From Escherichia coli O157:H7 (GTDB lineage: Bacteria; Pseudomonadota; Gammaproteobacteria; Enterobacterales; Enterobacteriaceae): a DNA stretch of 64,000 bases. Location: the NCBI RefSeq assembly GCF_013167455.1, contig NZ_CP038328.1, one strand, 5' to 3'. A program made the position numbers. Below, one piece after another: positions 18,001 to 24,000 of the stretch. The stretch's first letter is position 1. Every line of letters starts with the position of its first letter.

Positions 18001-21000
18001 TCCCGGCTGCCCTGAATGTAGGCCAGCAGCACGGCGGTAGCCTGACGAACCTTGTCCATCAGCATCTCATCATCCGCGTCATGGTCGACACGCAGATGTG
18101 CCTTGATCTCTTCCAGTGTCAGTAATGCCGTCATTTTCAGCCTCCTGCATCCCGCCCACGTTTTGCAGCCAGGGTCCAGGCTGATGAATGAGCTTCTCCG
18201 GGTTTATCTTCGGTCATACTGTTGCAGTGCCACAGCGAGCCCCCCCACGTCACCGTATCGCCGGGGTGGTAGGTTTCACCGGCTCTGAACACACCGCGGT
18301 AGAGCATCACCGGCAGGGAAAATGTTTTTTCCGTACGCTGGCCACTGCTCTGCCGGACCACCACAGAGAACAACCGCTCACCCGTCATGCTGACGTCAAT
18401 ATCCGCCACCCCGTCAACCAGGCATTCCCATCCCCGCATCCCGTGCGTTTTTTCATACGCCCGCCAGAGTCCGCCCTGGTGTGTGGCATACGTGCCCCGG
18501 GGAAAGGATTTTTGATCGTCAATGGCGGGGAGTATTTCCAGTGCCGTGGCATCACGCCCGTCCTGCGGAGCCGGCAGGGCACTCACCGCATCCAGAACCG
18601 CCTTCTGCAGAACATCCGGATCGTAGTCACGACCATCACGCGGAACAGGAATATGGCTTACCGCCTCCTTCACCATCTGTTCAAGCATCGGACGCACATC
18701 ATCCGGGGTGAGACTTTTACCGTCTGCCGGCTGCGGAATATTTGCGACCGCATCATTCACCGCCTTCTGCAGTACTTCCGGATCATAGTCACGACCGTCG
18801 CGCGGAACAGGGATATGGCTTACCGCCTCCTTCACCATCTGTTCAAGCATCGGACGCACATCATCCGGGGTGAGACTTTTACCGTCCGCCGGCTGCGGAA
18901 TATTTGCGACCGCATCATTCACCGCCTTCTGCAGTACTTCCGGATCGTAGTCACGACCATCACGCGGAACAGGGATATGGCTTACAGCCTCCTTCACCAT
19001 CTGTTCAAGCATCGGACGCACATCATCCGGGGTGAGACTTTTACCGTCCGCCGGCTGCGGAATATTTGCGACCGCATCATTCACCGCCTGCTGCAGTACA
19101 TCCGGATCATAATCACGACCATCACGCGGTACCGGAATGGCCCCCACAGCGTCATCCACCATCGCCTGCAGAACCGGACGCACCTCATCCACCGTCACAT
19201 GCTTCTGTAATACCGCCGACAGGGAAGTCAGTTTCTCTTCAAACGCTTGTGCCTGCGAGGCCATCTTCCCCTCAAATGTGCGCTGTAAATCCGCCAGCAC
19301 TGTGGAAAATTCTTCTCCCAGTGCACGAATAATGGACAGTTCCCGTTCCGTCATTTTCTCAGTATCCCCCCTGAACATCGCTTTCACCGCATCATGCTCT
19401 GTTTCACTGATTGCCTTATTACCGTCAGATGCGCCGTCAGGCAGCTGTGATGAAACTGTTTTCCCGGCAGACGCGAACGGATCCTCACGGGCATCACGAC
19501 GGGACAGCGCCTCCAGACTGTAGTTCTGCTGCTGAAGATACAGTGCATCACCGCCGGCCAGGGGCGGCAGGTTCTCCCGTTTACGGGCCTCATTGGGCGT
19601 GAGAAGCGTATTTTTCACCGCATCCCCCAGCGTTTTCATGCGCCGCTCACTGTCCATTCTCAGCAGCGTGGTGACATCAAATTCTGTACTCTCGTTTTCC
19701 CCCGTTTCCAGCGCCTCATCCAGTAACAGTTCAATGGACTCAATCAGCGTCTGCAGGCACTGGGAATAATACTGCTGCTCCAGCGCCTCCACGTTGTCAC
19801 TGGAAGGCGGTTGTCCCACGCCAATCTTGTAGGCCGGGACACGGAACACCGAACAGACAATTTCAGCGGTCATCTTCAGTTGTTCCACCGTCTGCGCATC
19901 CACCGGTGAAAACGTCGTGGGGTTGTATTTTGCCCCGTTGCTCAGAATGGCCGTTTTCCCCGCATTTTCGCCTGTATACCCGCTGTCCCAGTTGCTCTTC
20001 AGTTTTTTCGCATTTTCTTCCGTAATACTGCCGGGGATCTCAATCACCCCGGACGGCCTGCCGCCATTTCTGAAAAAAGACGTCGAATTTTCCTGAATAT
20101 GATGCCCCTGCGTGGCCGCCAGCCCGGCGGCATACACCGGCGGCAATCCTATAAGCGGATGAAAAAAACAGTTAAACCGGTCGTGGATCACTTCCCGGGC
20201 AGGCACCGTCACCGCCTCCGTGATCCCGCAGTTCCGGTCCGGCGTGATGCGGTAGAACACCTCGCCGTCATCCGCCACCAGAGGTTCAACCCGGCTCCAG
20301 TCCAGAATACGCAGTTCTTTGATCTGCCCCCGGGCATTACGGATTTTCAGCACCACCGTATTGCCATGACGCAGTTTGGCGTTCAGCCACAGTTCAAAAA
20401 ACTGGATGCGGTTCTGCTGGGCGTTGGGACGACGACAGAGGCGGGCAATATCCCCCCGGCGCGTTTCCCTGCGTATCCCATGCGCATCCGTCTGCATAAG
20501 ACGCAGCCGCATTTTGGCGATATCCTGGGATATCAGCGAAATACATGCAAACACCGCATGAAAGGAGAGGACGGCTTCAGGATCGGCTTTCACGCCCTGC
20601 TGCCAGGCGCCGGAAAAGGGCTCAGCCACCGCCTGAAACAGGCTGGTCCAGCCCGCCTCTCTTACGTCACGTCCTGATTTCTGGTTTTTTCGGGTTCGCC
20701 GTAAAAGGTTCCACATTCGCCATGCTCCGCATCACGTTTCTTTTTCTGACCTGCCGGACGTCGCACCGTGATGTACTCCGCCTTTCCCAGGCGAACCAGC
20801 ACCTCCGCACACGGCTGTGCCACATCACGGATATCCCCGGCCCGGGCATCATGCGTGCCCTGCAGATATCGGATCTTTGCCATAACCTGTTACGGGAGGC
20901 GCACGCCTCCCGTCCTCCTTATCAGACTCAGCCGCCGGACGCACTGCCGTAGTTCACTCCGGTGATCACCGCCACCGCCGCAGTACGGCGACGACGCCAG

Positions 21001-24000
21001 TTGATCCAGCGCTCCGCACGGATGGCCACGCTGCCTGTCTGGAACATGGAAACCAGCTCCACCGGGGACGGCGTGGTACTGTCGCCGCCCGGCTCAGACT
21101 GCATTTCCAGTGATGCCTCGCGGGACATATCCACTGCCACGCCGCCGTCATCCGCCAGATAAATATCCGGGGCATTCACCAGCACCAGCTGGTCACCCAC
21201 GTACTGGGAGACAATCACCGGCAGCCCCTGGAAGGAGCCACCCAGCAGGGTCATGTCCGGGTATTCCTTCTGACCCAGCGCATTTTTACGCATGGACAGT
21301 GCCAGGGCATTGGTGCTGGACATCAGCCAGACCGCACCGGTGGGCTGCAGGTTTGCTGCCACAAACTGTCCAAACGCAGCCTCGGCATCCGCATCCGGGT
21401 TACCGGTTGATGCCGTGCCCTTCACATCATGGGTGATGGACGCCGGGGAGACATCTGCCACTGCGGCTTTTTTCGGGTCCACAAAGTCTGTATCCAGACG
21501 CGCCACCACCGCTTCCGCCAGCGCATTACGGACCAGTGCATCAGCAGCCGGACTGGAAAAACGGATCAATTCTTCCGTCAGTACCGCAATGGCCGACACC
21601 TTCGCATGACTGAAGGTGATGGATTCAAAATCAAACTTCGTCAGGGGTTTTGCCTTACCCTCACCCACCCAGCCGGCAGCACCGCCGGACACCTGGGCGT
21701 GCACACGGATATTGAATGGCACCTGACGAAGTGCAGGGATCCCGCCCTGACCAAATCGCCCGATAATGGTCTGCGGACGCAGGTAATCAATAAAGTCCTG
21801 TGCGTATTCCTGATATTCAGACAGGCTGCCTGCCCACTGCGGATCCGTGGTGGTCCCCGCGCCCACTGCCGATTTCAGGACATGATGCAGACGACTGTCA
21901 TCCGGATACTGACGACGGGCCACTTCCAGGGCTTCAGATCGGACGCCTTTAGCCGCAGCCAGCGATTTGGCAAAGCGGGCGAAGCCAATCCCCTTATCCA
22001 GTTTCTGCTCCACACGGATCACCGGCGCAGAAGCCACCGCGGCCACATTCCCGTTACCGGCCTGTTTCACCGGCTGCGCCGTGGCGGCCTTACCGGCTTC
22101 CAGTTCACGCAGGCGCTTCAGGTGCGCATCCACCTGACGGATTTCCGCTGCGGTGTTGTCGTAATGCTCTTCCTCCTCCACATCCAGCGTGCGCCCTTCC
22201 TCTGCGGCTTTGGTCATGACCTCCTCAAGGGAGGCTGCCAGCGCTGCACGCTTGTTTTCAAAACTTTTAATCTGTTCGCCAATATTCATTATGGTCTTTT
22301 CCTTATGAAAAACGGTTGTTGACTGTGCCGCAGCGCCGGCAGAAGATGCGATTTTCACCACCGGTTTCCGGTTGCCGGACGCGGCAGAAAACGGGCGGTC
22401 GTAAGATTTAATGGTCCGGATGGTGCATTCCGCATTCGCGGGCACGGTGACGGCAGACACCTCCATCAGTTCCCAGCGCAGAAAATGCAGTCCGCCTCCG
22501 TCCAGAAAGGTGTATTCATGGGGACGGAAGCCCACGGACAGCCCCCTGACCAGCCCGGTCTTAATGGCCGCCCAGACCTCATCCAGCCGGGCAGCCAGTT
22601 GCGACGGCATATCCGGTACGGGCTTCACCAGTGTTGCCGTGATTTCCAGCCCTTCGCTGACCCGGCGCACCGTACACTGCCCCACCGGGCGGGAATGGTC
22701 ATGCTGCCAGAGAAACGGGATCGCACTGCCAAACTCCGCGCCCTCCGGCTCCAGGATGTCACCATCCCGATCCGGAGAAGGCGTTGACGCAATCCCGGTG
22801 ATCACCCGTTCATCCTCACTGAAGGATTTCACCGTCAGCAGGGAACAGGCCCGTTTAAGAGTCACATCAGCCTCCTGAAAATAAAAAAACCGCCGCAGCG
22901 GTTCATGATGGTTACAGTGTGAACAGGGTTATATGAAAAAAACCGCATATTCTTTCTTTTTCGGTTCCGGGTTAAGGGACATCAGGGAGACCGCATTGAA
23001 CAGCGCCATCAGCGGGTCAATTTTTCCCCGTCCACTGGCCTGTTTGGTGATAAGAATGGCGTTACCTTTAGGCTCCACCCGGGCATTGCCGACACACCAG
23101 GCCATCAGGGGCTGGTCACCATGCACCAGCACCCCTTCAGCCAGTTTGCGCTCGGTGGTTTTAATGGCCCCGCCCAGTTTCCAGCCCTGGCTTATCCCCA
23201 CCACAATTCCGTCGGGGATCCCGGCTTCCGCCAGTGAATCCAGAATCTGCCCCACCCCTGACGGGTCAATACCGATATGGTCCAGTAACTCAGCCTCATG
23301 AATGCGACGCACATATTCCGCCACTTCCGCCGTGTCATCCCCGACACGCCGGACAATGGTCATATCTCCACAGGCAACAAGATCCTGAAACCGGGACGCC
23401 TCGCTCTTCCGTCGGACCACCGCGGTTTCATGCGCCCAGGCATGGCCCCAGCCCAGCCATTCGCGGGTTTCCCTGTCACGGCCAATCACGTACATTCCCA
23501 GCAGATCATCCAGGCCCCCGCCGTCAATCCCCACCGTCACCACATCAGCGCGCTGCAGGATATCGTCCAGGCTGACGCGCCTGCCCTGCTGCTCCCAGAA
23601 ATCCGCACCCGCCCAGCGGTCAGAACGCAGGGCAAGACCAATTTCCACATTGGCATGTTTTGACATGAAGCCACGAAATGCTTCCTCACCAGCCTCCCGG
23701 GCTTTACGGTACTCCCGGTACAGAAAAGCCTCATCCACCGAATAACCGAGATTCGGGTTAACCATGGCGAGGTTTTCCATCAGCAGGTGAGCCCCGCTTT
23801 CCACCATTTCAGGAGGATGCTCAAAAATCACCGGCAGAAAGTGCGGATCATGAATTTTGCCGTCACGGACATCCCGGGCGTACTGCAGTTTCTGTCTGAA
23901 CACCCCGGCTGGCGGCTCATTCGACTGGGTGGTCGTATACACCACAAACCCTTCCGGGCGGGAGGCAAGGCCGCCTATGGCTTCACGTAACATGTCCTCC

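Follow-up and report, generated by a model that had tools for sequence, protein, structure and literature searches.

Capsid before portal: the head-gene block of an Escherichia coli O157:H7 prophage has an apparently ancestral gene order, a probable nested capsid start and a single-base portal fusion

In the canonical head-gene synteny of phages HK97 and lambda, the large terminase subunit (TerL) is followed by the portal, the protease, the scaffold (where there is one) and the capsid. Another order is on record for phages closer to the locus described here. GenBank annotates the Stx2c phage 2851 (Pankowvirus pv2851) as terS, terL, 'major head protein' and portal; a 2019 preprint describes phage 2851 and Stx2 phages as having 'swapped' capsid and portal positions; and a 2021 paper on the virion-forming phage EVP-1 reports a polycistronic transcript of the small terminase subunit (TerS), TerL, a 1935-bp capsid gene, a 168-bp open reading frame (ORF) and the portal (PMC8156552). 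We analyzed the head-gene block in a 64,000-nucleotide stretch of Escherichia coli O157:H7 (contig NZ_CP038328.1, assembly GCF_013167455.1; hereafter the window). Here the minus-strand order is TerS, TerL, a protease-capsid ORF of 645 amino acids (aa), a 73-aa ORF, an 859-aa portal ORF and a connector, which is not the canonical arrangement. The TerL, capsid, portal order is already known: it is annotated in GenBank, remarked on in print and standard for the O157/Shiga-toxin prophage family. A first-pass annotation of the window had noticed the order, and did not cover this earlier annotation and literature, the two-gene make-up of the portal ORF, the conserved internal start of the capsid ORF or the 73-aa ORF. 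We consider it very likely that the window carries, in a lambdoid O157:H7 prophage, an intact-looking head-gene block that is the head module of phage 2851, with an ancestral gene order, a nested start in the capsid ORF and a fusion of the portal to a downstream gene, which we call X.

The three ORFs that define the order lie exactly where they had first been placed:

22929-24590, minus strand: large terminase subunit, 553 aa (Pfam TerL_ATPase 2.2e-11, TerL_nuclease 3.8e-10; PHROG 9 2.1e-145)
20928-22865, minus strand: protease-capsid ORF, 645 aa (S78 protease, linker, helical delta/scaffold region and HK97-fold capsid)
18137-20716, minus strand: portal ORF, 859 aa (portal proper and gene X)

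Pfam, PHROG, PDB and Foldseek comparisons all return TerL, then the protease-capsid fusion, then the portal, the order that had been read from the sequence. The ORFs are long and their profile matches strong, so that chance is no concern for the identifications. In the 645-aa ORF, which starts with GTG behind an AGGAGG 5 nt upstream, Peptidase_S78 (PF04586) matches residues 48-152 (2.4e-8) and Phage_capsid (PF05065) residues 386-635 (5.2e-14), and PHROG 617, 'major head protein', matches over the full length (3.3e-261). A PDB sequence search with this ORF gave a single weak match, to Bxb1 (1.9e-3), and fold comparison was required. The AlphaFold model, built on a 36-sequence alignment of diverse fusion proteins, consists of a protease (residues 20-153), a disordered linker (154-191), a helical part (195-332, with helices at 195-262 and 293-332) and an HK97 fold (342-642). 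Its best Foldseek matches are the capsid proteins of Bxb1, HK97 and D3, with E values from 6e-15 to 1e-10. The earlier description of this ORF as protease, scaffold and capsid in one is thus borne out. H55 and S110 are invariant across the 36 sequences and are the putative catalytic residues of the S78 protease. By analogy with HK97 gp5, cleavage of the delta region may occur near K331/S332. In the 859-aa ORF, Phage_portal (PF04860) matches residues 54-382 (5.9e-81), and the portal part finds the HK97 portal (8cez, 4.4e-20), 9lbn and a gene transfer agent portal in the PDB. The window therefore holds the protein families of an HK97-type head: an HK97-fold capsid with a delta region, an S78 protease (activity predicted) and a PF04860 portal. 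The capsid ORF is divided as follows (pLDDT, predicted local distance difference test):

22407-22808, minus strand: protease domain, residues 20-153 (PF04586; AlphaFold pLDDT ~90)
21873-22289, minus strand: helical delta/scaffolding region, residues 193-331 (model helices; lower boundary placed by inference)
20931-21872, minus strand: HK97-fold capsid domain, residues ~332-645 (PF05065; Foldseek matches to Bxb1 and HK97 capsids)

Fusions of this kind are common. The 645-aa protein is matched better than 1e-30 by 1181 cluster representatives, and among the top 150 most are full-length fusions of ~630-680 aa. Two distant fusion relatives (P0123 and P0132) carry an extra N-terminal ~440 aa with an AAA ATPase domain.

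The order was compared across 80 related viral contigs, whose capsid identity ranges from 43 to 100%, and in which homologues of TerS, TerL, the portal, X and the connector were located by iterated hidden Markov model searches. TerL could be located in 76 loci and in all of them precedes the capsid gene on the same strand; the portal follows the capsid gene in 79 of 79, and both statements hold together in 75 of 75, down to 43% capsid identity. Fusion of the protease is not a prerequisite for this layout: Burkholderia phage vB_SBP39 and two metagenomic contigs (L088 and L089) keep the order with a separate protease gene. In another contig (L090, 2328-4445, protein P0261) a ClpP-type protease replaces S78, fused to a homologous capsid and still between TerL and the portal, which amounts to a protease displacement within a conserved layout. 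A Serratia prophage also has TerL, capsid and portal in this order, and so does a metagenomic relative of 38% identity, in which two further genes precede the portal. Since the order is kept in all 75 loci to 43% identity, and in relatives with unfused or other proteases, the comparison argues that it is ancestral to a lineage of HK97-type head modules that is 'uncommon' and yet abundant, and that no local rearrangement took place. The first-pass annotation had suggested either a module rearrangement or an uncommon head-gene family and had proposed a synteny comparison with related prophages; that comparison upholds the uncommon family and speaks against a recent rearrangement.

The 645-aa ORF contains a second candidate start. 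Within the coding sequence of the protease-capsid fusion, at Met193, an ATG in frame is preceded by a ribosome-binding site:

22287-22304, minus strand: internal ribosome-binding site AAGGA (22300-22304) and in-frame ATG (22287-22289), the predicted start of a 453-aa delta-capsid protein

An ATG stands at the position aligned with Met193 in 68 of 76 full-length fusion genes, and the other eight have ATG or GTG one residue off. We scored Shine-Dalgarno-like motifs 3-18 nt upstream of candidate starts. A strong motif precedes 59 of 67 Met193-type sites, as against 35 of 1034 (3.4%) other in-frame ATGs and a background of 4.5% for any codon of the same fusion genes; the upstream starts of the fusion ORFs have a strong motif in only 37 of 73 cases. 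The internal motif is AAGGAA in enterobacteria and GAGGAGG elsewhere, the encoded peptide differs, and the motif falls in the linker that is disordered in the AlphaFold model. Because the motif differs between clades and lies in a disordered linker, these observations point to selection on the nucleotide sequence. The unfused capsid proteins of relatives begin at the residue aligned with Met193. From this sequence evidence, the 645-aa ORF probably gives both a protease-capsid and a capsid-only protein.

Two products would then be made, a 69-kDa protease-delta-capsid protein and a commoner 48-kDa (453-aa) delta-capsid protein. The long form would co-assemble through its capsid domain and bring the protease inside, where the protease would trim both forms. 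With the protease covalently attached to the capsid protein by a linker of ~40 residues, its entry into the procapsid would be guaranteed, and the ratio between the two start sites would fix the dose of protease per shell. After assembly, the S78 protease (His55, Ser110) would remove the delta/scaffolding region, and the terminase, judging from the protein families, would package DNA through the HK97-family portal.

The portal ORF also combines two proteins. Its residues 1-450 are 64% identical to a stand-alone 449-aa Serratia portal along the whole length of the latter. In Serratia the portal is followed by a separate 300-aa gene X with an ATGA stop/start overlap, and the Serratia X is 54% identical to residues 596-857 of the window ORF. 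The window ORF is thus composed of:

19355-20716, minus strand: portal proper, residues 1-454 (PF04860; homology to the Serratia portal)
19366-19371, minus strand: run of six G (G6), one more than in related prophages (alignment with five G5 E. coli copies)
18137-19354, minus strand: gene X, residues 455-859, with its own ATG at 19352-19354 (Serratia homology; model)

The fusion comes down to a single base. Five E. coli prophage copies with five G read TTCAGGGGGATACTGAGAAAATGACG; in these the portal ends ...FRGILRK and its TGA overlaps the ATG of X. One extra G puts the portal in frame with X, and this G6 allele is found in the window, in one further locus of the comparison (L008) and in phage 2851. 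The portal and X were both located in 65 loci and are separate ORFs in 61 of them; in most relatives the portal stop and the X start share the overlap ATGA. In a 60%-identical lineage (L029 and L030), an in-frame portal-X fusion arose independently, with the Met of X retained. The G6 54-mer is matched exactly in 746 E. coli records and the G5 32-mer is present in 366 genomes, some genomes holding both alleles. The distribution invites the idea that the G5/G6 run is a heritable slippage switch, with X either free or attached to each of the twelve portal subunits. Each allele is common in E. coli, the fusion arose independently in another lineage, and phage 2851, which has the fused form, reportedly makes infectious particles; we nevertheless regard such a switch as doubtful. 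If real, it would change the composition of the virion. We also considered a programmed -1 frameshift at the G-run of G5 alleles and rejected it: the Serratia junction consists of no more than AGGGGA and an ordinary ATGA overlap, and no slippery heptamer is conserved. The portal of strain TR01, called 'frameshifted' by the Prokaryotic Genome Annotation Pipeline (PGAP), was likewise set aside as an example of G5, as TR01 has G6 and another indel.

The model of X begins with a long N-terminal helix, continues with helix-loop repeats and ends in a C-terminal CBM5/12-like beta domain (~18155-18532) with a pLDDT of 95. The repeats correspond to a tandem array in the DNA:

18597-19129, minus strand: 162-bp (54-aa) tandem repeat in X, 3.3 copies (Tandem Repeats Finder, 95% matches, score 982)

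Copy number varies between prophages, giving X proteins of 407, 461 and 515 aa in three loci (L010, L011 and L036), and relatives have collagen-like GxxGxx repeats in place of the 54-aa repeats. The only family signal in Pfam is CBM_5_12, which is sub-threshold (3.1e-5 in the Serratia homologue). Foldseek returned collagen-repeat, chitin-binding and tail-fibre proteins with weak to moderate scores (2.7e-3 in the PDB; 4e-7 and weaker for named collagen-repeat and CBM proteins in BFVD). From these features, X may be a fibre-like protein whose end binds carbohydrate. The alternative of a minor head protein of the MuF/SPP1 gp7 type was dropped, as Pfam finds no Phage_Mu_F domain in X. Stand-alone homologues of X (e.g. 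L004, 11488-12390) fall in PHROG 1289, 'portal protein', yet have no portal domain; the label was probably carried over from the fused 859-aa form.

Over 7014 bases, the 7-kb block is 99.7% identical to phage 2851; identity to many Stx1a, Stx2a and Stx2c phages is 96-98%. Related elements include these phages and the O157 lambdoid prophages YYZ-2008, 1717 and JLK-2012. Phage 2851 has the same 645-aa capsid ORF and the same G6-fused 859-aa portal; in many sister prophages the allele is G5 and the portal and X are separate genes. Among 5426 complete E. coli genomes, 1257 (about a quarter) contain the block, with a median of five copies each. Outside the morphogenesis block, the window is a mosaic in comparison with phage 2851 and strain FRIK1989, and its early and lysis regions differ from those of phage 2851. 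A further difference lies in a 255-aa ORF (17031-17798, minus strand), in which head-closure (Phage_HCP) and HK97-gp10-like domains are merged. Phage 2851 and TR01 have two separate genes here; compared with them, the window lacks 26 bp inside the head-closure gene, and this deletion creates the merged ORF. It is probably frameshift damage.

The gene order could be accidental, the outcome of a recent event, in this prophage or among Stx phages, that swapped or inverted the capsid and portal genes. It is unlike that of HK97, lambda and most siphoviruses, and the word 'swapped' in the 2019 preprint would suit such an event. A recent event would have to account for an order common to every one of the related loci, even those with 43% capsid identity, and for its recurrence in relatives from Burkholderia, Serratia and metagenomes that have unfused proteases; in addition, the genes are all on one strand and tightly spaced. 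We regard a recent swap as highly improbable. Even less weight, next to none, attaches to a misassignment of the domains, an outcome the first-pass annotation had itself raised. The order would be canonical with the portal in the 645-aa ORF and the capsid in the 859-aa ORF, but Phage_portal sits in the 859-aa ORF and Peptidase_S78 with Phage_capsid in the 645-aa ORF. The PDB and Foldseek results agree, and no support for exchanged assignments was found in Pfam, PHROG, PDB or Foldseek.

The fused ORFs might instead be read as the decay of a dead prophage, in which frameshifts merge neighboring genes without functional meaning. Some features have this look: the portal-X fusion stems from one extra G in a homopolymer, the 255-aa head-closure/gp10 ORF from a 26-bp deletion, and other copies have frameshifted tail and portal genes. 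Yet the protease-capsid fusion is the majority state and its catalytic residues are invariant, the deposited phage 2851 genome has an identical fused portal, for which there are exact matches in the 746 E. coli records, and a comparable fusion arose independently in L029 and L030. We think decay unlikely, and prefer a phage 2851 head module with an ancestral order, a nested start and a portal-X fusion. Several points weigh against this preference. Its internal start is predicted from sequence conservation, the conserved purine-rich stretch could stem partly from a conserved peptide in some clades (e.g. P-E/Q-E-G), and in the window AAGGA stands a rather long 10 nt from the ATG. The prophage may be defective and form no particles, given the 26-bp head-closure deletion. 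Allele counts in E. coli are inflated by the sampling of clonal O157:H7 genomes, and the high G6 count may reflect this and not selection. Phage 2851, with its fused portal, was reportedly viable and infectious in the hands of Strauch and colleagues in 2008.

The remaining features of the block are:

24587-25150, minus strand: small terminase subunit, 187 aa (Pfam Terminase_2 2.1e-7; PHROG 641 4.5e-67)
22877-22904, minus strand: GC-rich terminator-like hairpin with a T-run behind it, lying within the 63 bp that separate the TerL stop from the start of the capsid ORF (consensus scan and sequence)
20662-20883, minus strand: 73-aa ORF between capsid and portal (PHROG 829 3.7e-39)
17808-18134, minus strand: head-tail connector, gp6-like, 108 aa (Pfam Phage_connect_1 2.1e-7; PHROG 40)

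The 73-aa ORF overlaps the start of the portal by 55 nt, and its homologues occupy the equivalent position in 27 enterobacterial loci and in Serratia. The connector is followed by head-closure, tail-completion, tail-tube, chaperone and tape-measure genes. The hairpin between TerL and the capsid ORF, which the consensus scan puts at 22887-22904, has a 7-bp stem with four GC pairs and the tail TTTTATTTTC. It resembles an intrinsic terminator within the late operon. In the consensus scan, terminator-like sites across the region were no more numerous than expected by chance, and we make no terminator claim for this hairpin. Directly upstream of TerS lies an HNH endonuclease gene (25440-25805, minus strand), annotated from its counterparts in FRIK1989 and TR01; genes of this kind usually accompany HK97-type cos packaging modules.

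The flanks of the window match E. coli O157:H7 and include the effector genes espN and nleL. Positions 1-11000 match O157:H7 genomes at 100% and hold these two type III effector genes, an IS2-family transposase and an antirepressor; the segment forms cargo at the end of the prophage. Within it, at ~2000-8000, the G+C content is low (30-35%).

For annotation and for work on capsid assembly, three points may be of use: the PHROG 1289 label, the probability that the 645-aa ORF encodes two proteins, and the single-base homopolymer difference that separates the one-protein from the two-protein state of the portal and X.

Nested in-frame protease/scaffold genes are found in lambda (C/Nu3), Mu (I/Z) and herpesviruses (UL26/UL26.5). 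The capsid ORF of the window resembles them in having an N-terminal protease and an internal start, with products that would share a common C-terminus. It differs from them in the nature of the shared C-terminal part, which here is the capsid protein with its delta domain; there is no free scaffold. In HK97 the order is gp2 (TerL), gp3 (portal), gp4 (protease) and gp5 (capsid). The window has equivalent families of portal, S78 protease and HK97-fold capsid with delta, but in the order TerL, protease, capsid, portal, with the protease and capsid in one ORF, an extra small ORF, and the fibre-like gene X after the portal. For the portal-X fusion, annotations of Arthrobacter phages provide a parallel in a 'portal and MuF-like fusion protein', in which the gene after the portal is likewise fused to the portal C-terminus. 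X differs from the MuF-like partner in lacking a MuF match, its own signal being a CBM5/12-like end, repeats and collagen-like relatives. For the protease-capsid fusion, a parallel is found in the annotation of actinobacteriophages, where it is a named category and common in small-genome siphoviruses (PMC9671004). As in the window, the protease and capsid form one polypeptide; this is a likeness by description, between phages whose hosts and genome sizes are very different.

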